From: Octopus sinensis
Taxonomy: Eukaryota
Direction: 5' to 3'
DNA length: 64,000 nt
Assembly: GCF_006345805.1 (NCBI RefSeq)
Contig: NC_043008.1
Span: 12,958,001 to 13,022,000, forward strand
The notes beneath the pieces are model-generated. The model ran no database searches. It saw nothing but the letters and a program-made list of their open reading frames with translations, and was not told the origin of the DNA. The position numbers and the translations under genes are program-made. The first letter of the stretch is position 1. Each line of letters begins with the position of its first letter. Shown here one piece after another: positions 621 to 42,525 of the stretch.

Positions 621-2573
621 GTCAGAGCAATCATATTTTCCATACAAACACAGACGCAGGCACAAACAAAGACATCCTCACACACTCCGAATCCTCCACA
701 TACAGATACTCTTAAATACAATCTCACATGAACTCATAGTTGACTGCACACTGTCAGGAAATGCTTAAAACAGGAGGATAAAAATGTTTATTCAATATAA
801 CCATTTCAGCTTGAAGATGTAGCTTCTAATTTCGTAATGTTAATATCTTGATTTTCAAGCTGGTTGACTTCAAGGATATTTCGAGATGTTACCGAGGTTG
901 TTTGTGTTGTAAACCATATATTTCACCAGATCATTTGCTACGAAAATATGTCGCAACTTTTATGATATTACTGTAGTTGCAATCAATATCAGATATTCGT
1001 TTCTGTAGATAACGAAGCTAATATTCTTACTTGTCACGCCGACAGTAAATCGAAAAGATGAAAAGTCTTATTTTACGCTAATCTAAGTATTTTACTCGCA
1101 TTACACGGCATTACACGACATGATAGATAATACGCTATCTGTCGTTGTACATTTCTTATTGAAACGTTCAGAATGTATAACATATCAACAAGCTTGTTGA
1201 TCCTTAAATATATTCCCCAGATATTCAGACTGAAATATAAACAAGCTTGTTGTTGATATAGTAATTCTTTAGCTCCATATTAGTCGTATAATCCAGGAAT
1301 TCCAGCTGTGACCATCCTGTCTCCATACTGTCTGCAGAGACCCAAAACCATATTGTGTAACAACGTGTTTCCTATGTCGATAGGGTGTGATTTTAGGCAG
1401 ACTCTCCTGTTTCTTTCAGGGCAAAAGGACGCGTAGAGATTTTCCAGTTGGCTTCTTTTAGATTGTTGTTATTGATGGAAATCATTCCAGCAGTATCAAC
1501 TCTGTAATGTAATGTATCTGTTTACCACCGCATGGGGGAGCTAAATGCAGCGAGCTAAGAGAATCATAAACGAGTCGATGAAAACGCTTAGCGACGTATG
1601 ACCCCAACTCTTAATGTTTTAAATTTAAATTTTATCGAGGTCTCCTTTGCCTTTCAACCCCTCGGGACTTATAGAACGAAGCACCCATCAAATACTGATT
1701 GTAATGTAATCGATTTGTCCCCTCCCATCAAAATAGCTGTTATTGAATCCAGCAACAAGCCGGTAAGCTGTTCAGATAATGTAGTGATCTCAGGCACTTT
1801 TATACCATGGAGACTGGTCAACAAGTTTTGTGTCCTCGGTTTTAATGAAAAATAGCGTAGTTAATGACCTCCTAATATGCAACAAAACACGTCTTTTGGT
1901 CCGAAAAACAGGGTGGAGTGAGGTGGAAGACTCGGAAATTTCATCCCATTGATCTTTTCACCACCACGATTCTCATTAAGAGAAAATAAACTCTGATTTT
2001 TGGCATGGAATCAAATACCCCGTCCTCCTAATACGCTGCAAATCACTTCGTTTTGTCAGAAAAAGAGGGAGGTAGAGGAACCGGATCCCAGCCCCATATC
2101 CCTCAATCATTGGATATCTTAAAATTATATTTTACTTTGTATAATTTTTAGCTTTGTTTTTCTTTTTCCTTCATATCTGGCCATTGTTTCAGGCTTAGCT
2201 TTATGAGTGTTGGTTTCCTTTCAAGACTTCAAATATCTTCCGCTACATTTTCCCCCTTCTACGTTATCATTTGTACTGATTTCCCAATTATTAGAGGTGG
2301 AGATGTTTTCGAGAATTATCAGGGCATCTGTTAAAATACTTTGCAGTGTTTATTCTGATTTCCTGCCTCGAGATCAACTTTAAAAAGCAACCATTTCGTA
2401 AATTTAAATTTGAATTTCTAGTATCCTATTTCAGACCTCCCTGCTTCGCTGCCGGCGCTTGCTTAGTCAAATCTCTATACAATTACCTTTAATAAAGTTC
2501 TATATTTAAGAGATGGGTAATTATGTACATTATTTACATTTGACGGATATTTGTCCTCGTCTTGTTTGTTGTT

Positions 2574-2619
2574 AACACAACGTTTCGATTGATATACTCT
2601 CCAGCCTTCATCAGGTGTC
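2574..2619 (-). ncRNA. Minimal type-I hammerhead ribozyme motif
   Basis: Minus strand reads GACAC-CUGAUGA-A-GGCUG-gagaguauau-CAAUC-GAAA-CG-UU-GUGUU: full core, stem I GACAC/GUGUU, stem II with one mismatch, palindromic ACGU stem III as in Penelope-associated minimal HHRs. Confidence 0.75.
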
Positions 2620-2727
2620 TTGGGGAAATTTCGAACCTGGGTTCTCATCCCTATGGGCATATGGCTATTAACCCCAAGATTCCGATTCCGATCCCAGGTA
2701 GTGAACTGAATAATAATAATAATAATA

Positions 2728-2876: not shown

Positions 2877-3420
2877 TGCCAACATTATGGAATAACAACA
2901 GAAAAAAGATGGTATAGGCACACACCAGAAAAGGTCACAGAAAGCGAGAAAGCAACCATACTCTGGGATATACCGATACACACAGATAGAGAAATTAAGG
3001 CCAACAGACCAGATATAGTTGTCAGAGACCATGAAGAAAAAAATGCTTTCTAATTGATGTATCAATACCGGCAGATGACAACGTGTCTCTAAAAGAAATG
3101 GAGAAACTCTCAAAATACAAAGACCTGGAAATAGAGGTAACTAGAATGTGGAATCTGAAAACAGAAACAATTCCTATCATAGTAGGTGCATTAGGCATGA
3201 TAAAAAAATATTCAGACAAATACATAACAAAAACACCAGGACTTACAAACACATATAACGTACAGAAAATTGCACTACTAGGCACTGCACACATCCTACG
3301 CAGAACACTTTCCATACAATAACCATCAGAGCATCACAACAAATCACAGCACATACCCAAGGCACACAGAGCTGCGCTCGGTAGTGAAGTGAAAGCACGC
3401 TATAAAAATAAAACTCCTGA
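2877..3420 (+). mobile_element. 5'-truncated R4/Dong-clade non-LTR retrotransposon (RLE domain + 3' UTR) in (TAA)n
   Basis: Translates as ...ILWDIPIHTDREIKANRPDIVV...(frameshift)FLIDVSIP...KEMEKLSKYKDL...IPIIVGALG...QKIALLGTAHILRR, a PD-(D/E)xK restriction-like endonuclease C-terminus. Flanked by TAA repeats on both sides, the known Dong target. Confidence 0.85.
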
Positions 3421-3474: not shown

Positions 3475-3531
<57 letters not shown>

Positions 3532-3606
3532 TCAACAACAATAACAACAACAACTACAACATCAAAAAATACATTAGGAATGAGAAAACATGTTCGAAAT
3601 TTCCCC

Positions 3607-3654
3607 AAGATACCTGACGAAGGCTGGAGGGTATGTTAGCCGAAACGTTGTCTT
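3607..3654 (+). ncRNA. Minimal type-I hammerhead ribozyme motif
   Basis: AAGAUAC-CUGACGA-A-GGCUG-gaggguaugu-UAGCC-GAAA-CG-UU-GUCUU; intact core, 5-bp stem II (one G-U), palindromic stem III, imperfect stem I. Confidence 0.75.
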
Positions 3655-5393
3655 AACAACAAAGAAAATGAGGACCAATAACCGTCAAATGTAAATAATG
3701 TACAATTCTCTTACACACACATATATATATATATATATAAAATTATTTCTATATATAATTATATATATAGTTATAGTTATATATATTATATATATATATA
3801 TATAAAATTATTTCTATATATAATTATATATATAGTTATAGTTATATATATATATATATATATATATACTTCTAATTATATATATATACGTATATATATG
3901 TGTGTGTGCAAATATAATGTATGTCTGAGTGTGTGTGTTGTGTGTGTGCGCGTGTATGGTGGGGTTACGTTTGATTTTACATGTGCGCGTGTGTGTATGT
4001 AGATGTTTATATACTTTATACACATGCGCAAACATTGGAGAAATCACGTATGTGGAATGAAACATTCGTGTTTCAAGTCTACATGATGCGTTCAGTTGAA
4101 GATAATAGCTAAATATGAACAATTCCATCTCATTTAATTTTTCGCCAATGCTTTCTTTTGGGTGGGGGAGAAAACAATGATGGCGGCGGTGGTGGCGCCA
4201 GGTGTAAGATGTTTACAACCAATTTTTGTAGTAAAGTAAAAATTCAGCAAGTGGGTTGGTTCAACGCCAAGAAATATATATGTGCTGTTTATTGTAAACA
4301 AGAATCAAGATGAAGTTTTGTTTTTAGTTGCAGAAGAACTCTCTAAGCATGATGAATGAAACGGACTACCCCTCCACCTTCTCCTTTTCCTCCTCGTCAG
4401 CATTAGCATCAGCATCATCATCATCATCATCATTATCATTACCACCATCATTATAGTCCTCGTAGACTTCACCCTCAAAAGACCCGGCACTACTACCAGC
4501 GCCTCAACCACCACTACTACTATCATTATCATGATAGCCGTAGTGGCATAAGCAAATGTTAAAATTCCTCCTTTATGATATCTGCCAAAAACAACATCAA
4601 ATCACGCCTGTATATCATCTAGCAACAGGCATATCAATTTGTTTTTCAAAACACGCCGAAAAACATAAACGCAAATTTCATCAATCAACATCATCGATTT
4701 TTTTTTCTCCGTTCATATTGTTGTCGCGCTTTTATGAAGTATTTCGATTTTCAATTTTTCAAAGGGTCATTCATATTTCACAAAACGTCCCAAATATCAA
4801 AGTATCGACATATAACTCTTTTCATGTCACTTATTTTCAAAGGAGGGGTTGCAAATAATAAAAATTCAAAATGATTCAAAACTTGTGTTTGTTGATACAA
4901 TGGCATGTTTTGTTGATGTTGTAGAATTTACCATTTATATATATATATAGTGTAACTCACATTATTTTTGCGGTTGTACATGGAGACGGCTTGCTTATGC
5001 CTTCGAAATATAAAGGCTAAAGTCACAACCCTGAACGCGAGCAAAAATTTTATCTGATCATTGAATAGTCGGTCAGAAGGTTTAAGCTAAAAGCAACAAT
5101 TAACTTATATGCACAGTTAAAATGAGTCCTAATTCACATCACATGATATGTTCATGTATACATGCAAATTTTATATGTCTGCGTGATCTCGGCTGACCTG
5201 TGTCTTAAAAGCAACAATCGCGAAGAGAGTATAATGGAAGATTTAAATAATAAACTAATATACGACAATATCAAATTGGCACAATACAGGGAGACAATAT
5301 GTGCCGCCAATAAGAAGAATTACCAAAGTAACGTCAACAAGAGATTTCGCATATAAAAGCAGAAAGTGAAATATTAATTTTATATAGTATTCT

Positions 5394-9230: not shown

Positions 9231-9369
9231 ATAGCTGAAAAACAGGAAAAAAAAAAACTAAATGCAGTAGAAAAGTACGAACGATTATGGTGGTGCCATG
9301 AAGTAAACACGCTTCAGATACACTCGTTTATTTATACAAACGTATCTGAGATGAAATCTGTCATAAATA

Positions 9370-9640: not shown

Positions 9641-9781
9641 TACTAAATTAATTATCTAGATCTAAACTGGGGATATAGTCAAAAGAGACCCATGACAACA
9701 AAGCACTTTTACAATATTCTAGTAAAGCTATTCACTTCTTTGCTAAGTTGTTTTTATTAGTAATTAATATAAAACCACGTT

Positions 9782-10170
9782 GAGGCGGTGAACTGGCAGA
9801 ATCGTTAGCACGCCGGGCTAAATGCTTAGTAGTATTTTGTCCGTCTTTAAGTTCTCGGTTCAAATTCCGTTGATTTCGACTGTCAGTTTCATCCTTTCTG
9901 AGTCGATAAAATAAGCACCAGTCGAGCATTTGGGTCGATGTAATGGACTGCCCCCTTTCCGGAATTTTCTGGTCCACCCCCGCTTAAGAACATGGCTTGC
10001 TGTGTTTACATCCCTTTAAGTTAGCAGTTCTTCGTAAGAAACCGATAGAGTAAGCATCAGGCCTAAAAATGAAAAATGCTCGGGTCGATTCATTCGATTG
10101 AAACTACTACAAAGCGGTGCCCCAGCATGGCCGCGGCCTAATGATTGAAACGCGCAAAAGACAAAAGAAG
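9782..10170 (+). mobile_element. SINE family C copy followed by the 3' half of SINE family B
   Basis: GAGGCGGTGAACTGGCAGAATCGTTAGC head at 9782; GCGGTGCCCCAGCATGGCCGC tail near 10115. Confidence 0.7.
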
Positions 10171-10572
10171 ATACTGGCCTACATAACGTTTATAATTATA
10201 TAATTCTTAACTAATAATTATTCAATGCCAAAAATAAAAATTGCTTTATTCTAGCAGAACTAACAGGCGTCACTCAAGATTTGAACATATAGAACGCGTT
10301 TTTGAGTATCTTAAACAATCTATGGTAATATTTGATGTGTTTTAGTATGAAATTATATTTGCATATATTTCATTTTAATGCAAATACATGCTAAAATTGA
10401 ATTTTACCAAGCTTCTATAATGTGTGAAAATTTTGAGTGTGTTTATAGACAGTTTTAATTTTATAACTTAAAAAGTTTAGTATCTTTAATTTTTTTTCGT
10501 ATATTTTTTTTGTTTTCTGGTAATTTTAAATTGATATACAACGGACAAAGTTAATGCAATTCTGAAAGCAGA

Positions 10573-11170
10573 ATGTTCTGTTCAAAAGGCGACGAGCTGG
10601 CAGAATCTTTAATGTATATTTCATCTGTCTATGTTTTGAGTTCAAATTCCGCCGCGGTCGACATTTCATTTCATCATTTCGGAGTCGATAAATCAGCATC
10701 TGTTACGCATTGGAATCGATATAGTTTGACTGTCCTTTTTTGTCTCCTCTATGTTTAGCCGCCTATCGGTAATAAAGGAATAAATATGTTCTGTCCAAAA
10801 GGCGGTGAGCTGGCAGAATCCTTACCACGCCAAGCGAAATACTTAAATTAAGTACCAGTTACGAACTGGGGATCGACTGACTCTCTCCCCAAAATTTCGG
10901 GCCTGTGCCTAGAATACAAAATAATGTATTTTGTTCAAAATGCAGCTAGCTGACAGAATCGTTATCATGCCGGGTGAAATGCTTAGTGGTATTTCGCCTG
11001 TCTTTACGTTCTGAGTTCAAATTCCACCGATGTCGACTTTGCCTTTGATCCTTTCGGGGTCGATAAATTAAGTACCAGTTGCGTACTGAGATCGATCTAA
11101 TCGACTGAGCCCATCCCCCAAAATTTCAGGCCTTGTGCCAAGAGTAGAAAATAATATATTCTGTTCAATA
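10573..11170 (+). mobile_element. Array of three family C SINEs separated by a repeated ~15-bp spacer
   Basis: Heads at ~10588, ~10801 and ~10941; ATGTTCTGTTCAAAA-like motif at 10573, 10786, 10926 and 11156. Confidence 0.8.
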
Positions 11171-11240
11171 AGAACTCTGATATTGTCAAAATCATTTGTT
11201 CTCCTATCTCATACCTTGATTCATAAATGATTATGCAACA

Positions 11241-14140: not shown

Positions 14141-15633
14141 TACTATTTCTGAGAATCGTTGAGAGTTATTGAAAAAGACAGTCACCTAGAAACTGGAAAT
14201 GTTTCAACTGAAATGTAATACCTGATTTATTAACACGTCTGTTTAGCTCTCTAAATGTTATCTCTCTAATCATCTGTGTGTGTGTGTATAAACACAGGCA
14301 TAATTACATACACACAAACACATTTTATAAATCTTGAGTGTTAATGAATCTGTTTCGAAGTCACGTTGTCCAGCTAGAAGTCCCATCATACGGAAAACTG
14401 CCAAAATTTTTCTAGCATTATCTCTTGGCAGATGAAGGTTTGTGAGTAAATTTAATAGACAGAAACTTCGCAGAAAGGCGTTGATCAAATAGGAATAGAG
14501 AGATTGAAAAGAATTGTAATTTCGCTTCTTATTCGTACTTCCTAATAATAGCGATATTTTCCTTCTTCTCTCTCACCTAGATTCTTGAGGTTAGTTCCAA
14601 TTTCTTTTACCTCATACATTACCTATAATTTACTGACACTTACTATTGTCCAACTTAAGGGAGCTTTCTTAAGGAAATTAAACTCATCAATATCCACATT
14701 TTCCCGCCAACCTATTTCCCGTTCCGTTTTTTATTCCATTCTTTTCTCTCATATGTTTTTTGACTATATTAATACCCACAAACATCAATGCGTTTTTGCA
14801 GGTAACCCTATAAATTGTTCTGTTCAGTGTTCATATATTTTCTTTTCCTGCAGTTCATGCTTCCATCTTGAGAATATTTCTGATTGTCAACAAGGTTATC
14901 GATATCAAATTTCCTTTTCTTTTCACATGCTTTTTGCATTTCTCTTCAACGGAAAAGTGATTGTCTCCTGGTTACTTACAATAGCTGCATTCTCCGATTT
15001 CAAGGAAAATAGTTAGCCTTAGAATTACCTTTGTTCTGCTGGTTCTTTTAATTCTTGGTTGATCTTACCTTGCGTTCCTTGAATTCGTAAGTCCGGTACT
15101 ATCTCCCGGCATTCTTGCATTTTTTAAAATTTGTTTTGCTAATAGCAATTTCTTCGAAACGGCATCGATATCCTTCCTCAGAGGAACACCAGAGAAAATG
15201 AATATAACAAAAGTGGAACGGCACATTCGTCTTTCATAGAAATCGAACAAGGTATTAACAGATAAAACTTTTAATCTCTTGTGTCATGGACACTTAAAGA
15301 AATTAGAATAACAGAAAAACAATTTGTTTGAAACGATAAACAATTTCCCAATGGTACATTACTAGTTAATATAAAATTAAGTCAATCTACAGAACATAAA
15401 AGAGCATTTTCAAAAGATGCTGGCGTTGTCCAACACCAAATGATTTAATGACACATTGAGCCACATCCAAACAGAATTTTACAAAAACAATCAACTAAGG
15501 TGGTATTTGGAGTACTTTGACACAAATAGAGAACCCTTCATCTTATTTCTTTAAACTGTGTCTTATGATAATTGCTGTGCACTTTAAATCTACCCCTTAT
15601 ATCCTTGGAAAGACGTGTGCATGCATATATATA

Positions 15634-15692
<59 letters not shown>

Positions 15693-15845
15693 TGTGCATG
15701 CGTATATGTACGTGTGCATGTTTGTATATAAAAATAGGTGTTTGGATGTACTTCTGAAATTCACAATGCGTTCATCCATAGATATTATGTAGCGTGTCTT
15801 ATCTACTAGTTCTCTTCGTAATTTGTGAAACATGCCTTTTAATGC

Positions 15846-16052
15846 CCAGAGATGCACACATATCGTCAACCTCTAAGGGACATGGTCAACTGGTTATGGT
15901 TAAACACCAGAGAAACAAATCTGTGGTATTGAGCAGAATATTTGCTATAGCCCATCTTTTATACCAAGACAAAACGATTTACATGATAACACTTCCCATC
16001 AGTTAAGATCAGAAGCCATGAGTGCCACTGCCCGGTACTGCATCAGGGCATT
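15846..16052. mobile_element. Partial copy of the (TTA)n-associated interspersed repeat (family F)
   Basis: Matches 32994-33198 (CAGAGATGCAC...AAATCTGTGGTATTGAGCAGAATATTTGCT...GGTACTGCATCAGGGCATTTAT) and is followed by TCA/TTA repeats. Confidence 0.8.
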
Positions 16053-16089
16053 TATCATCATCATTATTATTATTATTATTATTATTATT

Positions 16090-16290
16090 ACTCTTCTCCT
16101 CTGGAAGCCATCTACCCGCAATGCCAGAGGGCGCACACTCTCCTACCCTGATGTAATCTCCAGGGATACAGGCATCCAGCAACAGGACCTCCGTAATGCC
16201 ATGATGGACTGTGAAGTCTGGCGTAGCATGGTAAATTCCATTGTCTCGACCACGGTCGAACAATGATGATGATGATGATTATTATTATCA
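16090..16290 (+). mobile_element. RTE/RTEX-type LINE 3' end with (GAT)n tail
   Basis: LLLWKPSTRNARGRTLSYPDVISRDTG...LRNAMMDCEVWR, a typical RTE-group C-terminus, then stop and (GAT)n. Confidence 0.75.
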
Positions 16291-16528
16291 TCATCATCAT
16301 TATCATCGTCTTATTCATCTTCAGCATCATTGATATGTTTAATGTCTATTTCGTAAGTTTCGTGCTGCCCTCGCATCTGCACATACACGTCGACGATTCT
16401 AAGGTGGACGCATCATTGCCTTATGCTATTGTGAAATTTCACATAACATCAAATATATTAATGCTATGTTATTTCAGCGCTATGTCACCAATGACTACTA
16501 TGTATCCGTGTGTCGTGTTCTATGTTTC

Positions 16529-16913
16529 TGGAAGCACTCCGTCGGTTACGACGACGAGGGTTCCGGTTGATCCGAATCAACGGAACAGCCTGCTCGTGAA
16601 ATTAACGTGTAAGTGGCTGAGCACTCCACAGACACGTGTACCCTTAACGTAGTTCTCGGGGATATTCAGCGTGACACAGAGAGTGACAAGGCCGACCCTT
16701 TGAAATACAGGTACAACAGAAACAGGAAGTAAGAGTGAGAGAAAGTTGTGGTGAAAGAGTACAGCAGGGATCACCACCATCCCCTGCCGGAGCCTCATGG
16801 AGCTTTAGGTGTTTTCGCTCAATAAACACTCACAATGCCCGGTCTGGGAATCGAAACCGCGATCCTATGACCGCAAGTCCGCTGCCCTAACCACTGGGCC
16901 ATTGCGCCTCCAC
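16529..16913 (-). mobile_element. SINE family A, full length
   Basis: Near-identical to 6426-6809; TSD TCTATGTTTCT on both sides. Confidence 0.92.
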
Positions 16914-17584
16914 TCTATGTTTCTATGTTATATGTGTCATACTATAACGTTCATTTTGTAGGCTCTGTTAGTTGATGCATTATTTCTTGTGCGTGGGGAG
17001 CATATTGTTCCAGGCTTACTACTGACGTACAAGTCCCTTGATCGTCTTACATTATAGGCCGATCATTTAAACTATGTGTTTCGTTGTTGACAGTTGGCAG
17101 TAAGCAAATCATTGAGACTACGTGTAACGTTATGGATTCTGGCACATATATGTCAGCTTTGTTCATAGTTTTAGCAGAACCACTGAATTAATTATTATAG
17201 ATTATCTTTTTCATCGCGTTTATGCCCTAACTGCCGCTTATATTTCAAAGTTTTGGATCCATATACTTCAAGGGGATTTTTGACCCCTTCCAGGTGAATT
17301 TGGTCTAAAGGGATCAAGATAATTATCGGCATCGATTGATATCTGGAAAACTTCTAAACAAAAAGAGTAACACATTGGCCGAAAGGCGGACGAGAGATAA
17401 TGAATGCCTCACTATCATCATCATCGTCATCATCATCGTCAACGTCATTGTCATCATCATCATCATCGTCATCGTCATCGTCATCATCATCATCGTCATC
17501 TTTATTATCATGTGTTCTGGTTTCTACTTTTGGAGTTTCAAGCAGACCGAGGAATACTTTGTATTTCATATTATTTAATGTAAA

Positions 17585-18440
17585 GATGGCGGCGAGCTGG
17601 TAGAATCGTTAGCGCGTCAGGTGAAATGCTTTGCCTCATTTTGTCTGCCGTTACGTTCTGATTTCAAATTCCACCGAGGTCGACTTTACCTGTAATCCTT
17701 TCGGGATCGATTAAATAAATTTGAATCCTTATTATACTTTCTAGTAATAAGTAAGCGTTGACCTGGCGGAATCGTTAGTACATCTGAGAAAATGCTTCCC
17801 GGTATTGCGTCCGTCTTTACGTTTCCAGTTCAAATCACGCCGAGGTCAACTTTGCCTTTCTTTCTTTCCTGGTCGATAAAAAGAGTACTAGTTATGTACT
17901 GGGGTTGATGAAATCGATTTACCCCTTCTCTTGTAATTATAGGCCTTGTGCCAACATTCAAAATCATTATCAGCCGCAGTATTAGTATTATAAGGCGATG
18001 GATGAGCAAATAAAACGTATGAAAAGGTCTTAACGTATTTCTCCTGGCATTTTACTCAGTTCTAAATCTTCCAAGGTCAGCTTGGCATTTCATGTATGCA
18101 TTCTAATGTGAAGTACTACTTAAGTATTTAGTGCTGATGCTATCGACTAAAGCTTTCCACTTGGTTCCTGGCTTAGTGCCTACGTCATAGGTAATTAGGA
18201 TGTTGAATTGGCATGTATTTGTGTCTAAATTTCGAACAATGATAATTATTAATCTGGAAAAGGCGGTGACCTCACAGAACCGCTACGGCACTGCGATATT
18301 TTTCTTAACTCTTTACGTTTGGCGTCATATGACACAAAGGTCAAATTTACATTTTATCTCCTCAGGATCGATAAAATAACATAGATCTCAATTACCGGGA
18401 TTAATTTTATCGACTAAACCCCTACAGAAAAGTATACTTC
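17585..18440 (+). mobile_element. Tandem array of about four increasingly decayed family C SINEs
   Basis: Heads near 17585, 17755, 17993 and 18260, each followed by GGTCRACTT..CCTTT..GTCGAT-like blocks. Confidence 0.7.
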
Positions 18441-19475
18441 CTTACTAGCAAAATCATAAAGGATTAATATTATTTTGTTGTTGTTTATGATAGTCTTGTC
18501 ATATTTATTTACTAGGGAGTTGGAATCCATCTTAAAATCGCATGCACAGTTTGACTGATTTTGAACCAATTATGGTTTTACATTCCACACAGTGGGTGTC
18601 ACTGAGTGACAATTACAGCTTCAGTTACAAAGCTATTCTTAAATGAGCCACATGTTTGACGGTGATAAGAAATCTGGGCATGCCTCCAGTGATAATATGT
18701 GTGGTGCACATCAACTTTGATTTGAAACTTTTCCAAGTTTTCGAAAGTGCTGATATAATAGGTAAAAGTGGAATAAAAGATATTTTCTTTGTAAGTTTTC
18801 ATTTTCAACTGTTATCCTGATTTATGGTACAATTATCACAGTGTATACACAAGAAATTTACTCTGGTCTTTCCGGTTCGTTGCGACAGAAAAGCTAATGT
18901 GAAAAAGAACCTGTTTAATTAAGGAGAATCTTTATATTTGAACAAAATTCTTTGCTGTATATTGTAACTTATATTACAGATCCTCATATAGTTTTGATTT
19001 TCTTCATTCCATTGTCGACAGAATAAATAGCAATTGAATGGTCGGACTAGAAAGGATGGCAAACAGCGTATATTTAAAGAGGCATATATGTGCCGGATCT
19101 GAACTGATGCCCGACATAAATACAAGTCGAGATTGTTAATGCAGTCCTGTTATAAGTGATGCGTAATATCCCACTACCATTTTCGGGTTAGATGGTCATG
19201 ATGGTAAGCACATCACAATCAGATTTCTCATGCGTATATTTAAAGAAAAATTTTTTCTCGTAAGGATACAAATCGGCCTATTATGATGATCTTAAGTCCT
19301 ATCAACGCTTTCTATACTCCGTTCGATGCCAAAAATCTAAAGCTAAATACGCTGAATAAATTATTCCTTGTCTTTTTCATCATCCACTGACTCCTACCAA
19401 AACTAGAACACAATACCCCGCCTTTTATTACCTTGTAAACACCACACCCTATTTATCTTCAAGACAAAACTCTCA

Positions 19476-19853
19476 AGGACTGGCTGTGTGGTAAATAGCT
19501 TGCTTACCAACCACATGGTTCATTCGCATTGCGTGGCACCTTGCACGAGTGTCTTCTACTATAGCCTCGGGCCGACCAAAACCTTGTGAGTGGATTTGGT
19601 AGACGGAAATTGAAAGATGCCCTATATATGTGAGTGTATATGTTTGTGTGCCTATGTTTGTCCCACCAACATCGCTTGACAACCGATGCTGGTGTGTTTA
19701 CGTCACTGTAACTTAGCAGTTCGGCAAAAGCGACCGATAGAATAAGTACTAGGCTTCCAAAGAATAAATCTGGGGATAGATTTGCTCGACTAAAATGCGG
19801 TGCTCCAGCATGGCCGCAGTCAAATGACTGAAACGAGTATAAGAGTAAAAGAG
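19476..19853 (+). mobile_element. SINE family B (tRNA head, CR1-like 3' tail)
   Basis: GGCTGTGTGGTAA...GGATTTGGTAGACGGAAA...GCGGTGCTCCAGCATGGCCGCAGTCAAATGACTGAAAC plus (GTAAAAGA)n tail. Confidence 0.85.
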
Positions 19854-20029
19854 TTTGTATTCCATGCTATACGCTGTATTCAAATTTAACTCCGCGAAGT
19901 AGCGTTTATGCTCAACTAGGTCACACTCTCTACGTATTCCATTTCCCTTCCCTCAATATTAGCATAAAAAAACCTTCAGTGCTTACCTCAAAGTATTTTT
20001 CCTACATATGTATCTATTGCTATGGATAC

Positions 20030-20148
20030 CTCAGTCACATGCAGTTCGGCATCAATAAAATTTTCTCCCTCATGGACATTAACACCATTTCTTCGCCATT
20101 TGAATTTATCGTGTTCAGCAGCTTCAAATTTTACGAAGCTTCCTGGAC
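20030..20148 (-). CDS. Candidate internal coding exon of an unidentified host gene
   Basis: Non-repetitive 119 nt between TTGTATTGACTGTCAG| and |GTATCC, open as (G)PGSFVKFEAAEHDKFKWRRNGVNVHEGENFIDAELHVTE; no homolog recognised and the donor is weak. Confidence 0.3.
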
Positions 20149-20955
20149 CTGACAGTCAATACAAAGGTCGTAAAAACATCCACTTCTTAACGGCCATTTC
20201 AAATATATGCCCGGAAAAGAAAAGCAAAATGAGAAAGAATTCTACAAACAGATTCCAAGCAAGTTAGTCTTCAACGATATGAATTTCCTCTGCAAAATAT
20301 CAACGCTATTCTGCGATATTTGTGTTTAATGTAAGGATTCGGCAAACAGACGCTGATAATCACAGCTCAACGCACACTTTAATGCGTTTGTATTAGACAA
20401 ACAAACCTATATACAGGTATATGTTTATGCGTAATAAATATGACATACTTTATCTCCTATTACGATCATGTTAAATCTACAGAAAATAAATCAAAACAAA
20501 TATTCTCTGAAAGCGAAAACACAAACAGATACGTTTATAGAATATGTATCTGTTACACGAGAAAATACGATTATATGCTTTAAATAATTATGAAAATGAT
20601 AATAGAAATATGTATGTAATGTATAGGTAACAGAAAGAACGATATGACGTGAAGTCTGTGTGCCTGTTGCTTATCATAAGATACTATACATCCGTTCTTC
20701 AGGGTATTATGTATTAGACATTTTAATATATGACCTTGTAAGTGTTTGTTTGTATATGAAGAGATAATAACTGAGCTTGTGTGTGTTTTATTTTGTTTCT
20801 CATGAATGTCGAAAATCACATGTATTTGCTGGTTGTTCACGTCACCATGTAAACGTGTGTGTATGTCTGTGTGTGTAATTATATCTCCGCCTACTGAAAC
20901 TCGCGTATGAGATATAATATAATCTTGTGTTTATCTACCTATCTGTCTATCCATG

Positions 20956-21280
20956 TGCGCATGGTTCAGTAGTTAGAATGTAGGGCTTACAATCATGAGG
21001 TAGTGAGATCGATTCCAGGACAAAGCTGGGTGTTGTGTTCTTGAGCAACACTCTCTATTTTACGCTGGTCTAACTTATTTAGCTGTAGAAATGAGTTGTG
21101 ATGTCACTGGTGCCAGTCTGTATCAGCCTTTGCCCTTCCCCGTACAACGTGGGTGACATGGAGTGGAGAGAGTCGCATATATGGGCCGGAGGTGGTCTGC
21201 CATAAAGAATCCTCGGAGGGTAACTTTCTGGGTGCAATCTCATGGTCATTCATGACCGAAAGGGGTTTTTACACTTTACA
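20956..21280 (+). mobile_element. SINE family E (tRNA head, CORE-like centre)
   Basis: A/B-box-like head, TTGTGTTCTTGAGCAA, AGCTGTAGAAATGAGTTG, tail GGTCATTCATGACCGAA; second copy at 55012-55335. Confidence 0.7.
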
Positions 21281-21384
21281 TATACATACACACTAACACA
21301 CACACACATACACACACATACACACACACACATACACACACATACACACATACATACATATATACATATATATATATAGAGAGA

Positions 21385-21582
21385 GAAAGTTTACGAAAAA
21401 AGACAAAAGACGAAGACAGGTGGTGTACAAAACAAACAGATGTATTAGTATAACGCCCGGGAATAGAAAAAGTCTTTTACGTTTCGAGCCTCCGCTCTTC
21501 TACAGAAAGGGACACAGAAAAAACAAGGAGAGAAACAAGGAGAGAAAAAAATGTGTGTGGTGGCTAACGATCTATCATGGCG
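21385..21582 (-). mobile_element. Short Penelope-like/retrozyme-like fragment carrying a variant hammerhead
   Basis: Contains the HHR-like motif at 21474-21509 in pyrimidine-rich minus-strand sequence next to a (TA)n tract. Confidence 0.5.
21474..21509 (-). ncRNA. Minimal hammerhead-like motif with core variant (CUGUAGA)
   Basis: CUUU-CUGUAGA-A-GAGC-ggag-GCUC-GAAA-CG-UA-AAAG: perfect stems I and II, palindromic ACGU stem III, A6 replaced by U. Confidence 0.6.
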
Positions 21583-21689
21583 ATGTACATTACTAGTATA
21601 TGAAGTAGACAGAAATAATAGGTTATATTCAATTATATGCCTTTCGATACATGCTTCTATTTTGTATATATATATATATATATATATAC

Positions 21690-22533
21690 CCAGGAAGATG
21701 AAGAAGGTAGAGGATATTTATGCAGTCTTGACAATGAACGATTGAAAGCAATTGTTGGACAAAACCCGCGTCAAAGTGTCAGAGAAATGTTTCGGGCATT
21801 TGGTGTCGATATCACAACAGTCTTATGCAATCTGTAGAAGAGTGATATGGTGAAAAAGCCCGATAAATGGGTACTGTATGAGATCAATGAAAGTTTAAAA
21901 GTTAGGCGTTTTGAAGTGTGCTTCATGCTCTTTCTGCGAAGCACCGATGATCATTTCCTCGACCGAACACTCACTTGTGAGGAAAAGTGGATCCTTTATG
22001 ATAACCGTAAACTATCAGTTCAGTAGTCAATAGCCTGATCGTAGTGAGTCCCCCAAATATTTCCTAAAGTCAAAGTTGCATCAGCAAAATATTATGGTAA
22101 CTGCCTGTTGATCTGCAATTTGTGGTGTCCGTTACAGCTTTCTGGAAGTCAATCAGAGCATTACAACAGAGAACAACCGCGATGAATTCGCTTAAATACT
22201 TGCTGGCTTGCAAAAAATGAGGCCTGCATTGGTGTAACGGCGTGACTCAATTCAGGACCATGATAATGCAAAGCGATTTGTTGCAAAAGTGACGCTGCAG
22301 AAACTCACAGACTTGGGATACGATAATTTACCACATCGTCCATATTCTTTTTCTCTTTCACCCACCGGCTCTCATTTTAAAGCATTGGAATCAGCACTTA
22401 AAGATTTCTTGGTAGAAATAACCTCGTTGGTCAATGGCAAAAATGCATAGATGTCCACGGCTCATACTTTGACTAATCAAAACATTTCTATTGTTAATTT
22501 TTTCAGAATAAAATTGTTTGTAAACAACCTAAT
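21690..22533 (+). pseudogene. Decayed mariner (DD34D) transposase with 3' TIR
   Basis: EDEEGRG...LKAIVGQNPRQSVREM, KWVLYE (WVPHEL-like), FLDR..TCEEKWILYDNRK, HDNA, LPHRPYSFSLSPT (YSPDLAP-like); several stops; TIR-like CAACCTAAT at the end. Confidence 0.9.
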
Positions 22534-22559
22534 CCATAAATAAAATGTTTAAACTAAGC

Positions 22560-22910
22560 ATTCATATATGCACATATGTGCAGGTGTGCGCATTATGTAT
22601 AGCTATATATGGTAGATATTTATAATTATTATATAGATACTTAATATATATAATCATATATAATCTCTCTCTTTCTATCTCTCGCTGTCTCCCTGTCTCT
22701 CTCCCTCTCACTCTTTGACAGTTATATAGATATAACATGCATATAGAATTATATAGAGTTACATGGATATGACATGCGTATAGACAACTATAACATGCAT
22801 ATCATATTTGAATATATATATATGTATAATATATATAATACTTACACGCAAACACACACGCACACACAAACACATAAATGTAATTTAATATAATATATAT
22901 TATATATATA

Positions 22911-22954
<44 letters not shown>

Positions 22955-23657
22955 GTGTGAGTGTGTATTTAAAATATATTAAATATATAATATATATAAA
23001 CGTATATAATATATAAAATATATATAAAAATATATATAGATTTATATATGAAATATATATGTATATACACTTAATGTGTTGTGTGTATAACAGTATATAA
23101 GTGTGTATGTATGGTGCACGTACTTATACAGGTCGCCGTATCTTAGTTAATACTTAATTATAAATAAATATATGGCATAAGAAACAACCTTCTCCCCACA
23201 AAAAATAATCAAAAAACAATCAAAAAAGATAAACATTAACAACGAATAAATATGTAAATTTGGCAGAAAGTCACATTTTTCTTCATTTTTTTTTCTTGTG
23301 GTGCATTGTAATGCGTAGAGTGGGCCTATGCTGGGACGGAATGTACGTAGAATTGGAACGATCTCAGACATTTAGTGGAAAGAGAGATTCTTGTCGTAAT
23401 TGTAGTAATTCTGGTTACCGTACATGACTCCCCGTCGTTGGGCCAAGACCTGGAGTTTGTTAGAAAAAAAACGCTGCCAATCTCACTCTTATAAACGCAC
23501 GCGTGCCAGTGTGTATATATATATGTACAATTAGATGCGTACGCACGAACGCTAAGGCACGCACGTATATATTGAATGACTATATACACATACACACACA
23601 TACAACCCCGTCCACACGCACACAGACGCACATATATATGTATCTATATATATACAT

Positions 23658-23735
<78 letters not shown>

Positions 23736-24145
23736 ATGTATATATATGTATATGTATCTATAAGCTGTTGGCTCTGTGTTTTTGTGGTAATTTTTGTATG
23801 TGTGTCTGTGTATATCTCTGTGTGTGTGCATGCGTGTGTGTGTATGTCTGTGTGCTGATATGTAACGTTATACGCCTGAGTATGTAGATCAAATCTAATT
23901 ACCTACATGCAATTAGATGGACAAACATGTACATATATAAGTAAATATATATACATACATATACATATACATACATTTATACACACTCACATATATATAT
24001 ATATATATATAATATATATATATAATATATATATATAATATATATATAAATATTAAATTATATATATGTATGTATATATATATTATATATATATGTATGT
24101 ATAAATATATGTACGTATATGTTTTAATATATATATATATATATT
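22560..24145. repeat. Degenerate (TA)n/(CA)n-rich region
   Basis: Visible runs at ~22800-23110 and ~23580-24145 around a short unique island. Confidence 0.85.
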
Positions 24146-24149
24146 GCTT

Positions 24150-24405
24150 TAATCCTTTTTTCTATATCAACCCTAAGGCCGTGGTCATGCTGGAGCACCG
24201 CCAATGTAATCACCTTGTAATTGGCCAATTCTATATAATTGGTTGATGGTGAAGGAGTGAACTTCGTCACTGTTGCCCTCTTTTGAGTTTCCTGCCTTGA
24301 AGAAGCTGGTTCGTCTAGGATTTTGTATAGCAAGAGGTCAAGTTTTTTCTTGAATGCATCTACCCCTACACCATGGAGATCCATAACCCCACACCATGGA
24401 GTGGA
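24150..24405 (-). mobile_element. CR1-group LINE (second family) 3' end
   Basis: DLHGVGVDAFKKKLDLLLYKILDEP...RA C-terminus, then 3' UTR GGCGGTGCTCCAGCATGACCAC. Confidence 0.75.
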
Positions 24406-24429
24406 GGTATAGATTATATATATATATAT

Positions 24430-25640
24430 ATATATATATAATACATATTTATAATGGATCTTTATAAGCGTAGATATTGTGAGCCACATGTAACAAATAC
24501 ATTGAAAGACCAAAGTTCGTAGATTAGTCACACAGGACTTTAAGAAAGACGCCCTGGGATATACACTAAGCTTTTATATCAAACCTAACAAATTGCTCCG
24601 GGGATCGAATGTTACTACTAATCCAATATGTTACGACTAATCTTCCAGTCTTCATGCATTTCCTATGTAGATTTATTGAAGGTAGCAAAATCTCACCACG
24701 TCAGACCACTACATATGCCTTCTGGATATATTTTTACACGTTCGTTTTTACCGAACCCAGAACCAATAGGGACTTAGAATCAAGCGTCAGTTATAAAAAT
24801 ATATATAAAACAGTATCGATGGGGGCAGTTGGCCATGAGCGAAGCTTCTATGGATATGCATGTCCGCGTTTACTTTTTCCATGATGTGGGCTCTGGTTGT
24901 TAACTCAAGATCTGCCCCGGCACCACAATTTCCAGTTACGGCACTGGTCGCAAAAGTATATAAGATGTCCTTCCCTCCGCCGTTAATCATTTTTAAGTAG
25001 ATAAAAATGTGGATAAAAGGGTTTTCAATTGTTACCAAACCCCTCGCTTTTCTTCTATCAGTGAATATATTGCACAGTGAGTCATCAGTCATCAGCCTTT
25101 TATAATCCTGTAGGTTGTATTTCAGGGAATTTACCTCATATACCTTACTGGATTGCGCAATCTCGTTGAAGATTCCTTTATGTTTAAAATGTATTTGCAG
25201 ATTATATGCTGATATTTTTAATTCGATTCACCTTTATTCAGATATAAGCTAGCTGCTGCTGTAGCTATCTCCCGAGAGCCCGAAGAAACCCTTGTTTGTT
25301 TACATGACAACGATTAATACCTAGGTAAGTTTGTAGTACTGTTAGATGATATCAAGTATATTGAGGAGTGAAAACGTTTGTGATCTCTGATTTTCCTTTA
25401 CGTGTAAAAGAGATAGAAATGATGTTGTTTTCAATATAGGTTGTGAATGAAGGAGATAAAATAACGGAAAAGGTTATGTGTTGGGTAGTGATGTAGGGAG
25501 TGGGTGGAAGAGAAGGCTGAGGGGAGAAATGGTTGGGAACAAGTCGTAAGTAGAACAAAGAAAAGGAAACTAAAATTAGAGTGAGGCAAAACCCGTTTGA
25601 AGCCATCGCAGTTAATTTACGTCACTTAATGCTTTGGGGA
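24430..25640 (-). mobile_element. Possible highly decayed Penelope-like remnant
   Basis: Weak GIY-YIG-like peptide (ILYTF...CGAGADLELTTRAH) and a pyrimidine-rich pLTR-like segment; poorly supported. Confidence 0.25.
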
Positions 25641-26280
25641 TATGAACATCGGTGCATCCTATTGATCTGGCTCTAGGAAGCTGACAGCTTCGGCGTAGTA
25701 CATTCAATTAGATCGTTTCTTTTGTTCGATCGTATTTCATGGAGTCGCATAAAATAACCTGATCAGAGCCAGTCACATAATAGAAAGAAAGGAAAATATT
25801 TTTTATTGTTAGAATTGTCGATTCAATACACAGTACTCTTACCCCAAATTTGCGAAATTGTGTTTATGTTAAGATTCATTACAACTAGAACTGCCATTGC
25901 GATCGATGGGAAGAAGAAATTGTTTATAGCGCTGAATAAAAGTTACCTTGAGAATTATCCGTTGCTTATTTTACGTTCTACTTCCGTGGAGGGGACTTTG
26001 ACTTCAACACTTCCTGGTACGATAAAATGAAAATTTTATTTCTCCTATCGGCCAAATTAACTGTACCCTTTCCAACATTATATTACCACGTGTCAATGTT
26101 AAGATCCTATTTATTAGAATTAATAAGGTGGCAGAATTACTAGCACGCCGGTTAAAATGCTTGGAGGTGCCGAGGTCGCTTTGATTCTTTCGGAGTGGAT
26201 AAAATATTTGGTACTTGAGTACTAGGACGATGTGATCATCTAGCCCCCACCCCACTTTAATTTCAGGCGTTGTGTCTTTT

Positions 26281-26710
26281 CAATTCTATATTTAAGAGAT
26301 GAGAAATTATGTACTTTATTTATATTATTTACATTATTTACATGAATATTTGTAATCTATTCTTTTGTTAAAACAGCGTTTCGGCTGATATATCTCCAGC
26401 CTTCCTCAGGTGTCTTGGGAAATTTCGAACTTGGATATATGGCATAGTGGTTAAGAGCGTGGGCTACTAACCCCCAGATTCCGAGTTCGATTCCAGGCAG
26501 TGACCTCAATAATAATAATAATAGTAATAGTAATAATAACAATAATAATAATAATAATTATAACAATAATGATTATAATTATAATATCGAAAGATACCAT
26601 AGGAATGATAACCCAGATTCTAAATTTCCCCAAGACATTTGATGAAGGCTGGAGGGTATAACAAAATGAGGACAAATATCCGTCAAATGTAAATAATGCA
26701 AATATTGTGT
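26281..26710. mobile_element. tRNA-(TAA)n-hammerhead element with inverted ends, locus 2
   Basis: Minus-strand arm with HHR at 26371-26414; plus-strand tRNA-like head 26440-26507 (TGGCATAGTGG A box, GAGTTCGATTCC B box); (TAA)n; plus-strand arm with a partly deleted HHR at ~26634-26660. Confidence 0.82.
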
Positions 26711-27487
26711 CTATAGTACAACGAATTACTGGAATTAACAGCAAAATAAATTGAATAATGGTATAACATCGGATTAAATGATATCCTGTATTTGTTTGAA
26801 TTTTGACGTATTGAGTTCAATTTCTTCTGATGAGTATGGATTAAACAATTAACAGTAAGTTAATGAGATCAATATTAAGATTTATTCATTCGCAACAAAC
26901 GTGTAACTTTGTGCTAATGTGAGAAATCATATCAGAATAATTCTTATGGTTATTTATTTGTTTAAGTCTGTTTGGAGTTCGGTGACAGAAGCGTTTTTGC
27001 GTTTCTAACGGTCCGATGAAGAGTTCAATTCATACGAAAATAGGGTGAGTGCTCCGTTCGTAAAATGCTTCTTTCTTTTTTTCGCTGGTATTTCTGCTAT
27101 GTACGATATCTCTGTGAGGCATAGGATATAAGTGTAACAACGAAGTGAGTACTAAATTGATTGACTACGTATGCGATCGAATGTCTATACAACCATGTAT
27201 ACATTTTCATATCCAGAAGATTACACATACACCTCTATTCTTAGACAACCACATAAATGTTGCACCACATGCACACACATACACACATATATACACACAC
27301 GTACACACAGATATACATATATATATACGTTTTATTATTATTTATTTATTTATTTATTATTTTGCACCTTACCTAATCATCGTTATATGTTTTATCGTAT
27401 ATTTAATCTTTCTATATGTAATCTTTCTAAATGGAATTATTTAATTTTTCATTATTGAATTGATAAAAGGTGTTTTTTTCTAATTTT

Positions 27488-32055: not shown

Positions 32056-32640
32056 CAGAAACATAAATGCACACGGCCATCTAGACATGTTTGTAGATAC
32101 AGATATAGATATAGGCTTAATAAAATGTAGACGTGTACTTTTGTACCAGTATTTAAGATAAATTTAGGGTGATATACAATGTCACAACTGATTAATGACG
32201 TCTATGTATAGTAGTCGGGTTATACAAATACGTGCTTTCATAACTGCGCCAAACACATTGCTTTGTGTTGCAAAAAATGGCTGCGACACACGCCCGGAGC
32301 AAGTCATTACAGGAGATGAGAGTAGGAAGATGAAACATAAATGCCCTCGCATATCCATACACTCATGCAGGCGTATGTATAGTCGATTATTTTGCCACCA
32401 GGACTCTCTTTGTATATATATATCAGGACTTCGTTACCGAACCAAAATATTAATAACCTGTCCTTCGAACTGATTACACGTGCGCTTCAGAGTAAAGTGC
32501 TAAGAGAGATCGATCAAGGAGTTCAGAAACTTCGCGGTTGCAAACATATTCCCAAAAGATTCTTGGAAATTCTAGAAAATTATCAAAAGCGTTCTTTACA
32601 TTATTTAAATTATTTACATTTTATTATTATTATTATTATT

Positions 32641-33194
32641 GAGTGAGAGAGCAGTTCATGCCATCAAAGTGACACTGGGGTAAAATATACGAAGCCCAAT
32701 ATACCCATCATGACTACCCGTCTGATAAGGGTACACCAGGCACATGCATCACAACCATATGTGCGCGACATTGTGATCTCGTATCAAGATAAACAGCACA
32801 TGACCTTGCAGGTGGGGCCCAGTTAGAATTTTCTTCAGGTCGAGTAGCCCATCCTGCTCAAAAGGTCCCTGAATAAGGGTTGCTTTAGGATGTTGAACGA
32901 AACACCCATGTTTCCAGAGGGGAATTATTCAAACTCCAAAGAATCCCTCTCAACACATGGCTATGATGCTCCCCCACTACTTCTGCTCGTGATCAGAGAT
33001 GCACGTATAGTCAGCCACTAAGGGACATGCTCAACTGGTTAAGGTCAAACAAGTGACAAGTAAATCTGTGGTATTGAGCAGAATATTTGCTGTAGCCCAT
33101 CTTTTATACCAAGACAAAACAATGTACATGATAACACTTCCAATTAGTTAAGATCAGAAGCCACGAGAGCCACTGCCTGGTACTGCATCAGGGC

Positions 33195-33198
<4 letters not shown>
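32641..33198. mobile_element. (TTA)n-associated interspersed repeat (family F), ~560 bp
   Basis: Bounded on both sides by TTA repeats; partial second copy at 15846-16052; no coding similarity recognised. Confidence 0.75.
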
Positions 33199-33238
<40 letters not shown>

Positions 33239-33370
33239 TCATTGCCTGGGATCGAAATCGGAATCTTGGGGTTAGTAGCCCGCGCTCATAACCACTAAGC
33301 CCACGGGCATATGGCGAATAGCATCGACACATACCTTAAGAATGAGAGCCCCGGTTCGAAATTTCCCCAA

Positions 33371-33416
33371 GATACCTGATGAAGGTTGGAGGGCATATCA
33401 GCCGAAAAGTTGTGTT
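33371..33416 (+). ncRNA. Minimal type-I hammerhead ribozyme motif
   Basis: GAUAC-CUGAUGA-A-GGUUG-gagggcauau-CAGCC-GAAA-AG-UU-GUGUU; stems I and II kept through G-U pairs, stem III palindrome broken by C>A. Confidence 0.7.
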
Positions 33417-35415
33417 AACAACAAACAAGATGAGGACAAATATCCGTCAAATGTAAATAATGTAAATATTGTACATAATTCCTCATCTCTTAAATATAGA
33501 ACTGTGAAAGCGTTCTTTATAAGCGATAAAACTCTAAGGCGGACGTGTTTTCAATGCTTCAAGTGTAAAATTAAATCTCTTTGCCATATGCACAAACGCA
33601 CACACTTAATTATACCCGCATATACATACACTCACACAAGCATTTATGTAGTCAATTACTTAACTCAACCTATATATATATATGTTAGGATTTCGCTACT
33701 GCACCGAGATATCAATGACTTAAACCTGATTATACATGCCCTTCAGAGGAAAGTGATAGGCGTGTACAGCAGAACGTTATGAGAATTAAGGGGAAAAGTA
33801 ATTAAGCAATCAATTTTATTAGCTCACTGCTATTTTTTACGCCATCAGATTCAGTGCACCTCTTGATGCTTCAAAATGAAGTGCATGCATACTTGGGAAA
33901 ACACTCATATATATATATATATGTATATAAAGAAGATAAGAAAATGGAGAAATACATGTAAATCAATTATCAATTACCAGATAATACTCAATCACATACT
34001 TTATTAAACCACCACATAAGAGACTGTAGGGTTAAATATAAAAAGCAGAACAAATCAGTGTACATAAATGAATGTACATAAAAAAGTGTACATAAAAGAG
34101 TAATATTGTATTTTGTTGGGGGTTGTGCGATTTCTGCGACACAGGCGCGGACCCGGTGGCGCTGCACCGGGGTTTGTGCGCCAGCGTTGCGCGGGCGCGT
34201 CTGTGCATGTGCATTAACGTGTGCACTCTCGCGCGCTGTGCTTGCGGACATTCGCGTGTACTTGTACGCGTGTTCTTGTGTGTATCTTCGTGATCGTGTG
34301 TGCGAGAGGGACGTGTGCGGGTGTGCCCGACCATGACCTCGTGTGTCCGTGCGAGGGCGTGCATGCACATGTATGTGCATGTGGGTGCATTCCGGCGTAT
34401 CCACTTATACTTACTATATTAGGTTTATCTTTGTGCCCTCCTTAATTTGTATTCCATTCTATTTATCTATTTATCTATACATGGATATATATATATATAT
34501 TCATATTTATTTATTTAATTATTTATTTTTGTATATTTGGCACTTACTAATCTATAATTAATTTAATTTATAATTAATAGACTTATTCTAAATTAATAGT
34601 AACCTCTGTAGGTGTGTGAAAATGTGTATGTGTACGTATGTATGTTTTTGTACATATAGGTACGAGTAGGATCGTGGGTGGATGTACGGATGTATGTTTT
34701 TATTACACATATGAGCACGCAGGTGCGTACTTGGATGTGTATATATGTATATGCGAATATTCATTCATGGGTGGATATAAATATAGGTTTTATTTGTACG
34801 TATGAGTGGGCAGATATATATTTAAATATATATATATATATATGTGTGTACGAAAGTTCCCTGACACAGTATAAGAAAGTGTATTAATATTTATGCGTAT
34901 ATGCGGATGTGCATGTGAGTGTGTGTGTCAGTGTTAGACACTGCTGCCTGTACTGATATGTCTATAAGCCATACGATGACAGACATGCACTCTGCAATTT
35001 ATTGAATGTGTAGAGATGTGTCGGGGTGTATTCATGTGTGTGTACATGTGTATGTGAGTTTCTGTGTGGATGTGTGGGTTTGAGGTTGGATGTGGATGTG
35101 TATGTTTTGCTTGTACGGTGTGGTGGAGGTCGGGTGGCTCTCAATTGACCAACCGTGAGGAAGATAGTGATAATTTTAAATTCAATTCCAATAGTGTATT
35201 TATGTCATCTGGAAAATTATTAACTGGAACCCGGACATACATATATACCGCTCTCGATCCTAATGTAAGCGTTATTAATAATATTATGAATGATAATAAT
35301 GATAACATTAATGGTATTGACAACGATAATGATGCTAACTTTAATGTTAAAAGTTTAACGCCAAAAGGTAACCTGCTGCTGTTTCTGACAATGACCGTCT
35401 TTCATACACCAATGC

Positions 35416-42250: not shown

Positions 42251-42396
42251 ATAGAGAACACTATTTTTGTTCCTTATCATATTGGTTTCAAATTTTTAGG
42301 ACAAGGCCAGCAAGTTCAGGGAAGAAGTGATACTTTGGTGTGCGATCTACACTTTATATTGTGATCTACAACAAGAAAAATTATACTTATCAAGAA

Positions 42397-42525
42397 CAGT
42401 CATATATTTAAGAAATGCGGAACTATGTACCTTATTTACATTATTTACATTATTTACATATACGGATATTTGTCCTTATCAAGATGAGAAAAAATATCCG
42501 TCAGATATAAATAATTATCATAAAC
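42397..42525. mobile_element. Collapsed remnant of the hammerhead element (two inverted ends fused)
   Basis: CAGTCATATATTTAAGAAATG...ACGGATATTTGTCCTTATC joined directly to GATGAGAAAAAATATCCGTC; the HHR and tRNA centre are missing. Confidence 0.7.

Follow-up and report, generated by a model that had tools for sequence, protein, structure and literature searches.

Results

Repeat loci in the window

The window analysed here, a 64-kb stretch of Octopus sinensis contig NC_043008.1 (positions 12,958,001 to 13,022,000), contains three loci at which a (TAA)n tract is accompanied by inverted arms, and this reproduces in outline a preliminary description of the DNA. The features are as follows.

2496..2656, minus strand: locus 1 inverted arm with tail
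2574-2619, minus strand: locus 1 minus-arm hammerhead, core and palindrome kept, one stem II mismatch
2655..2709, plus strand: locus 1 head, A-box region deleted
2877..3420, plus strand: 3' fragment of a different non-LTR element, nested in the locus 1 (TAA)n
3560..3702, plus strand: locus 1 forward arm without tail
3609-3654, plus strand: locus 1 forward-arm hammerhead, core kept, one stem I mismatch
26270..26277, no strand: locus 2 left target-site duplication, TTGTGTCT, 8 nt from the sequence and 7 nt by script
26281..26434, minus strand: locus 2 inverted arm with a 30-40-nt tail, arm positions 29-183
26370-26414, minus strand: locus 2 minus-arm hammerhead with U16.1>C, predicted inactive
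26433..26507, plus strand: locus 2 tRNA-like head
26440-26450, plus strand: locus 2 A box, starting at tRNA position 8
26483-26494, plus strand: locus 2 B box
26508..26585, plus strand: locus 2 (TAA)n tract, which belongs to the pseudo-LTR (pLTR)
26586..26704, plus strand: locus 2 forward arm without tail, the start of a Penelope ORF with its ATG at 26605-26607
26705..26712, no strand: locus 2 right target-site duplication copy, from the sequence and by script
32586..32598, no strand: locus 3 left target-site duplication, 13 nt, with its right copy at 33507-33519
32597..32621, minus strand: locus 3 arm remnant, arm positions 128-152
32640..33198, minus strand: nested 559-nt repeat (INS3) inserted in the locus 3 (TAA)n
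33235..33301, minus strand: locus 3 head
33322..33504, plus strand: locus 3 full arm with tail, the inverted partner
42396..42515, no strand: fourth, small inverted remnant, arm 108-183 on minus and 105-140 on plus

Several particulars of that description need correction. A hammerhead ribozyme had been placed at 26281-26710, but neither arm of locus 2 is an intact hammerhead: the U16.1>C change gives the minus arm a GCU triplet rather than GUU, and the plus arm carries C3>U together with a 27-nt deletion after 26659 that takes out the 3' strand of stem II, the GAAA, stem III and the cleavage site. Locus 1 had been credited with a tRNA-like head including an A box, most of which is gone, and locus 3 had been read as a head followed by a plus-strand arm, whereas its head lies on the minus strand and the plus arm is the inverted partner, in which C15.2>A disrupts the ACGU palindrome. 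Only the two arms of locus 1 retain both core and palindrome, each with one stem mismatch. The remnant at 42396-42515 consists of the 3' part of the arm only, arranged tail-to-tail, with neither head nor ribozyme. Over the whole window the hammerhead-core pattern occurs three times against 0.43 expected (none of 100 shuffles reaches three), and the full A- plus B-box pattern occurs once, at 26440-26494, against an expectation of 0.00.

An autonomous Penelope element

As judged from sequence, the head, (TAA)n tract and hammerhead arm together are the pLTR of an autonomous Penelope element in the same genome, the unit reading head-(TAA)n-arm-ORF (reverse transcriptase, GIY-YIG)-head-(TAA)n-arm over about 2.9 kb. 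The earlier proposal that a Penelope reverse transcriptase (RT) mobilises the repeat is supported. The proposal of an independent non-autonomous SINE did not survive, since head and arm make up both pLTRs of the autonomous element, with the same majority sequence and similar divergence (5.0-6.0%). The single ORF matches Pfam RVT_1, and its homologues, which are 40-68% identical, carry RVT_1/PF26215/PF28514, with PF01541 precomputed on 3 of 120 of them. Its translation contains YIDD and, at the C-terminus, CVYSIPCSCG..YKGET, which we take to be a GIY-YIG endonuclease; no linker zinc finger was seen by eye in the Penelope ORF, and the element is a putative member of the EN+ Penelope/Poseidon type rather than of Neptune/Nematis. 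A natural ORF of 551 aa at L109 matched no Pfam family, although close homologues carry RVT_1.

The order of the parts was read from individual loci. The RT/endonuclease ORF stops about 30 nt short of a head at L016, the head lies 3' of the ORF in 28 of 30 ORF-selected loci, and at least 14 of 30 5'-ORF loci have the arm directly adjoining the start of the ORF. At L171, L183 and L187 the 5' pLTR reaches the head and begins there, and both L187 and L167 have pLTR sequence at the two ends; one locus counts against, L185, where ORF 3' sequence lies upstream of its 5' arm. The ATG at arm position 21 shares its phase with an open frame of 783 codons, the arm amounting to the first ~54 ORF codons, with the hammerhead in codons 10-25 and the ATG ~30 nt upstream of it. 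Divergence at third codon positions in the arm shows only a slight excess (5.8% vs 4.0-5.2%). The majority sequence is the same for ORF-linked as for short copies, and their non-CpG divergence is 4.9-6.0%; present copies are ~5-6% diverged and mostly dead. L071:7387-7929 is a piece of another Penelope-like family, a distant one with 33% identity.

The tRNA-like head and the starts of copies

The majority sequence of the head retains an intact A and B box spaced as in a tRNA, the A box beginning at position 8, and the head is probably, as first proposed, a Pol III-type promoter. Its best match among the tRNAs of the genome is Ala(TGC), with a z of 8.5 among only 15 distinct tRNAs, so that the parent is not assignable. 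The linkage of head and arm claimed at the outset holds, a same-strand arm accompanying 29 of 29 head-selected heads, 25 of 26 pattern-sampled heads and 2 of 4 heads found in random DNA.

Most copies begin 2-8 nt before the head. Among 56 heads that were not head-selected, 28 have their 5' end at -10..+5 and 2 at -40..-11, while 9 extend more than 40 nt into the ORF and 17 end inside the head. Start-reaching heads that are not ORF-linked keep AC or AT at -2/-1 in 43 of 64 cases (AT being the CpG-decayed form of the master's AC), whereas positions -16..-9 are kept in only 3 of 64, which places the end a few bases before tRNA position 1. Such an end fits a Pol III start, unlike an RNase P cut; cleavage by RNase P at +1 was considered and is disfavoured, the ends retaining -2/-1. 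A 5-bp inverted repeat, TGCCC-AC-GGGCA, coincides exactly with the start of the head, where it might arrest or divert the RT. The 67 ORFs of distant Penelope-like elements (PLEs) from metagenomes had no A/B-box pair within 700-900 nt, a comparison that is weak because only 3 of these have a hammerhead pattern and most thus lack pLTRs.

A run of four T is the Pol III terminator. The preliminary description saw no such run before the ribozyme, and this extends to the whole unit, the sense strand of which has zero TTTT along its 2.9 kb. For the ORF body 4.1, 2.3 and 2.6 runs are expected under three nulls, and the probability of finding none is 0.01 with mononucleotide, 0.07 with dinucleotide (not significant) and 0.04 with codon shuffling. 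The absence is effectively one observation on one master sequence, and G4 runs are likewise absent from the sense strand of the unit. Individual copies contain 17 T4 runs against 90 expected, scattered like private mutations. The distant PLE ORFs that were long enough (67, from 80 loci) all have at least one T4, with 349 observed vs 233 expected, and ten RT-ORF stretches from the same genome, eleven rows less L071:5598-6662 (a T-rich low-complexity ORF with no Pfam RT match), have 26 vs 21.8 expected.

The hammerhead

Core CUGANGA...GAAA, stems I and II, a palindromic stem III and NUH were each tested; the majority sequence and both locus 1 arms have the proposed form of a minimal type-I Penelope hammerhead, and the arms of loci 2 and 3 do not. 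It occupies arm positions 50-95, with the cleavage site at position 90. Substitutions between copies had been thought to preserve the stems through G-U pairs, but pairing is kept in 63 of 160 changed cells (39%) vs 42% expected (p=0.52) across 179 arm matches not chosen by arm similarity, the expectation being taken from the flank mutation spectrum. The stem I and II substitutions are neutral mutation with no covariation signal. In the core 45 mismatches stand against the 57 expected from the flanks, so that excess conservation is not clear, and an intact hammerhead is kept in only 35 of 131 arms. Among non-CpG variants of the core only one is clearly shared between copies, at the freely variable hammerhead position N7 (19 of 135 vs a 1% background). 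Its U>A form occurs in 13 of 51 ORF-selected loci but in only 6 of 84 elsewhere, which indicates that short and long copies are not wholly identical pools.

Rfam gave no hammerhead or head call among the matches listed and ARAGORN gave no tRNA call; these minimal hammerheads and the tRNA-like head score below the models of both. Folding of six single arms gave z from -2.05 to +1.99, with a hammerhead-like minimum-energy structure in L197 only. A modelled dimer is predicted at -22.3 kcal/mol vs -12.0 per monomer without stem III, an alternative dimer being predicted at -28.0, and the hammerhead would have to act as a dimer or with assistance from protein. Two relatives, P0003 (56% identity across the RT-EN query) and P0135, differ in the residues of loop II but preserve TPD[DE]G and [PS]KR, the peptides that each half of the core ribozyme sequence imposes. 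The distant PLE protein P0120 starts MPDDGGWISRRNV, the same hammerhead imprint with its second half in another frame, and hammerheads are thus recognisable from PLE N-terminal peptides.

Insertion structure and copy number

The tail is present on one side only in 35 of 44 inverted-ended units, and direct repeats of at least 8 nt flank 19 of 43 units, compared with 1.3% of 1806 control pairs. The arms terminate 3' at position 183 (68 matches) and otherwise mostly at 140-157, that is, copies end at two arm sites ~35-40 nt apart. An inverted 5'-truncated partner and a one-sided 30-40-bp tail are typical of PLEs, according to the portion of the source available (Craig et al., PMC8557442). In the Poseidon element of Anolis both DNA strands are nicked and extended, reverse transcription begins internally at two sites ~111-118 nt into the ORF, and the tail is the sequence between these two starts (Frangieh et al., PMC11167929). 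The palindromic architecture that had been put forward as a novelty is thus already standard for PLEs (PMC11167929 and, in its accessible part, PMC8557442), and the inverted ends, one-sided tail and target duplications are the published signature of Penelope insertion.

Copy numbers were estimated for the 2.72-Gb genome in two ways. Forty arbitrarily chosen 10-kb stretches contained 4 heads, 2 arms and no ORF piece, which scales to ~27,000 heads. Exact 25-mers occur genome-wide 60 times for the ORF start, 639 for the endonuclease, 657 for the spacer, 1362 for the head start, 2488 for the head middle (both head words containing mutable CpG) and 4148 for the arm. The counts are flat from endonuclease to spacer and then rise at the head, after calibration in a 3-5-fold step within ~30 nt; the calibrated counts correspond to 30,000-60,000 arms, 9,000-25,000 heads and 2,000-5,000 ORF 3' ends. 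Short units are several-fold more numerous than ORF-linked ones.

Neighbouring repeats

The nested fragment at 2877..3420 presumably resembles an R4/Dong C-terminus and had zero Pfam match. Such R4/Dong-like 3' fragments, nested in (TAA)n at 2877-3420 and at L012, L092, L205 and L216, are 95-98% identical and hence younger than the Penelope burst, and the (TAA)n of the pLTR is a landing pad for the R4/Dong-like element. INS3 is a 559-nt non-coding repeat with sharp ends that lies in (TAA)n tracts at 32640-33198 and 15847-16053 of the window and at many other loci. It had no Rfam match and was present in 9 of 40 random 10-kb stretches, mostly at 81-96% identity, making it far more abundant than the Penelope pLTR; INS3 is possibly a non-autonomous microsatellite-targeting element. 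At 5' junctions or within (TAA)n, GC-rich stretches are joined to pLTR copies (oriented views, L009:~1080-1310 and L186:~1180-1230); they are possibly rDNA-like and may represent template switches. Seven tRNA-Cys genes are clustered in 2.5 kb at L147:493-3006, and the locus pairs L005/L006, L124/L126 and L128/L129, on different contigs or nearby, share flanks and are segmental or assembly duplicates.

Discussion

The novelty of this repeat is the tRNA-like A/B-box head carried in the pLTRs of an autonomous Penelope; its ribozyme and inverted ends are ordinary Penelope features. The explanation we favour, and consider rather probable, is that the pLTR contains a Pol III-type start and that the short copies are complete reverse transcripts of the first ~300 nt of the RNA. 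Transcription would start at the head and would probably depend on Pol III. By analogy with Anolis Poseidon, the Penelope protein would bind the arm at the ORF start and prime internally on both strands, and nicking of both strands combined with two RT starts in the arm would, by the same analogy, account for the opposed copies, the tail on one side only and the target duplication. When primed in the first arm, the copy would extend ~300 nt back to the 5' end of the RNA, giving the abundant short 'SINE-like' units, and priming in a downstream arm of a tandem RNA would give the ORF-bearing, mostly truncated copies. The head and (TAA)n would themselves go back to a captured tRNA-derived SINE lying between the stop and the start of the ORF. 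Cleavage by the hammerhead would detach the ATG from the ORF, and uncut RNA would be the message.

A bolder form of this explanation, which we put forward tentatively and hold to be possible but on balance doubtful, is that Pol III transcribes the entire 2.9 kb from the captured promoter, that TTTT terminators have been purged from the entire coding strand, that the SINE-like copies come from the same start and that the hammerhead just 3' of the ATG switches the RNA between message and template. Against a Pol III start, Pol III is considered insufficiently processive for autonomous elements, and Kojima argues that the autonomous partners must use Pol II, in the text available (PMC10886601); the Penelope element of D. 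virilis has a TATA-less internal promoter and an intron, as far as the accessible text goes (PMC2377424).

The numerical excess of short units over ORF-linked ones, their possession of both promoter boxes and both RT start sites, and the unequal frequency of the N7 variant between the two pools would also be expected of a true Penelope-dependent SINE, that is, of solo head-TAA-arm units transcribed by Pol III and re-amplified in trans through the Penelope protein. However, their majority sequence and age equal those of the autonomous pLTR, no arm position differs at p<0.02 in head-linked units, and the Anolis Poseidon template needs 50-60 nt of ORF beyond the RT start (PMC11167929), which solo copies lack. 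We judge such a SINE unlikely, and it can coexist with a Pol III-type start in the pLTR.

The pile-up of 5' ends at the head could have another origin if the head were an old SINE insertion carried passively in an element transcribed by Pol II, with the ends produced by a fold-back hairpin or by RNA processing. The inverted repeat TGCCC-AC-GGGCA stands at the boundary, and an inverted partner accompanies 42 of 76 short starts at their junction; the T4 statistics are modest, and the known Penelope promoter is Pol II-like in the part of the source available (PMC2377424). Yet the 34 of 76 starts with no detected inversion group at the same place, the retention of -2/-1 at the ends, which speaks against an RNase P cut at +1, the intact A and B boxes of the majority sequence and the lack of T4 depletion in the control ORF sets make this origin less likely again. 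Very improbable is a retrozyme-like rolling circle in which hammerhead cleavage and ligation provide circular RNA templates, as proposed for PLE hammerheads (PMC4209133, in the part available) and in keeping with the derivation of non-LTR retrozymes from pLTRs (bioRxiv 10.64898/2026.07.22.740005, likewise in part), since the cleavage site at arm 90 is not where copies end (their ends lie at arm 140-157/183 and the head start), a fixed 5' end is something a circle lacks, and the mapped loci are dispersed and tail-to-tail, with a head-to-tail short-unit array only at the duplicated locus L048.

To our knowledge, Pol II (or, in R2, Pol I read-through) is taken to be a requirement for autonomous retrotransposons, and Pol III promoters are taken to occur only in short non-coding parasites. 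If the pLTR does contain a Pol III-type start, this Penelope element, with its tRNA-type promoter and an ORF free of TTTT, would violate that rule and open it to direct testing. The element would also show a route from the RNA start of an autonomous element to a 'SINE', and tens of thousands of copies that are likely annotated as tRNA-SINEs would be Penelope pLTRs; if only the passive carriage of an old SINE insertion holds, the outcome is an annotation correction.

Among the papers listed by full-text search of the literature there was no Penelope element with a tRNA-derived pLTR, and repeat libraries, supplements or the 1994 SINE paper may hold the sequence. The Octopus tRNA SINEs OK, OR1 and OR2 of that paper, by Ohshima and Okada, reportedly have tRNA-derived heads and are likened to the present head by description only. 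The parallel with Anolis is not confined to the insertion structure: Poseidon_Ac of Anolis carolinensis (Penelope/Poseidon clade) also has an ORF with RT and C-terminal GIY-YIG, AT-rich targets, a hammerhead overlapping the ORF start and two 3' ends inside the ORF start that give the optional tail (PMC11167929). Its hammerhead, which overlaps the start codon, depends on protein, and insertion in vitro proceeds without it (PMC11167929). Unlike the octopus element, its pLTR has no tRNA-like head or (TAA)n described in the main text, and its ATG lies within the hammerhead rather than ~30 nt upstream (PMC11167929).

The ribozyme resembles the minimal type-I hammerheads of metazoan pLTRs in its 5-bp helix I, the unpaired base before helix II, G10.1-C11.1, the palindromic 15.2-16.2 and the lack of a loop III, as these are given in the accessible text, which, unlike the case here, does not mention a tRNA-like head (PMC4209133). 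A tRNA- or 5S-derived Pol III promoter within a terminal repeat, with a SINE insertion as its proposed origin, is known from Helenus, Ajax and Cassandra (TRIMp3), which according to the available text are non-autonomous LTR elements of <1.3 kb, whereas the present element is an autonomous Penelope of 2.9 kb (PMC10886601). The order of a Pol III promoter followed by a type-I hammerhead is shared with the SINE-like Sm-alpha and Sj-alpha elements of Schistosoma, which are described, in the part of the source available, as tandem satellites with canonical hammerheads and no linked ORF (PMC6765202); unlike these, the octopus units are dispersed, inverted-ended and identical to the pLTR of an autonomous element.
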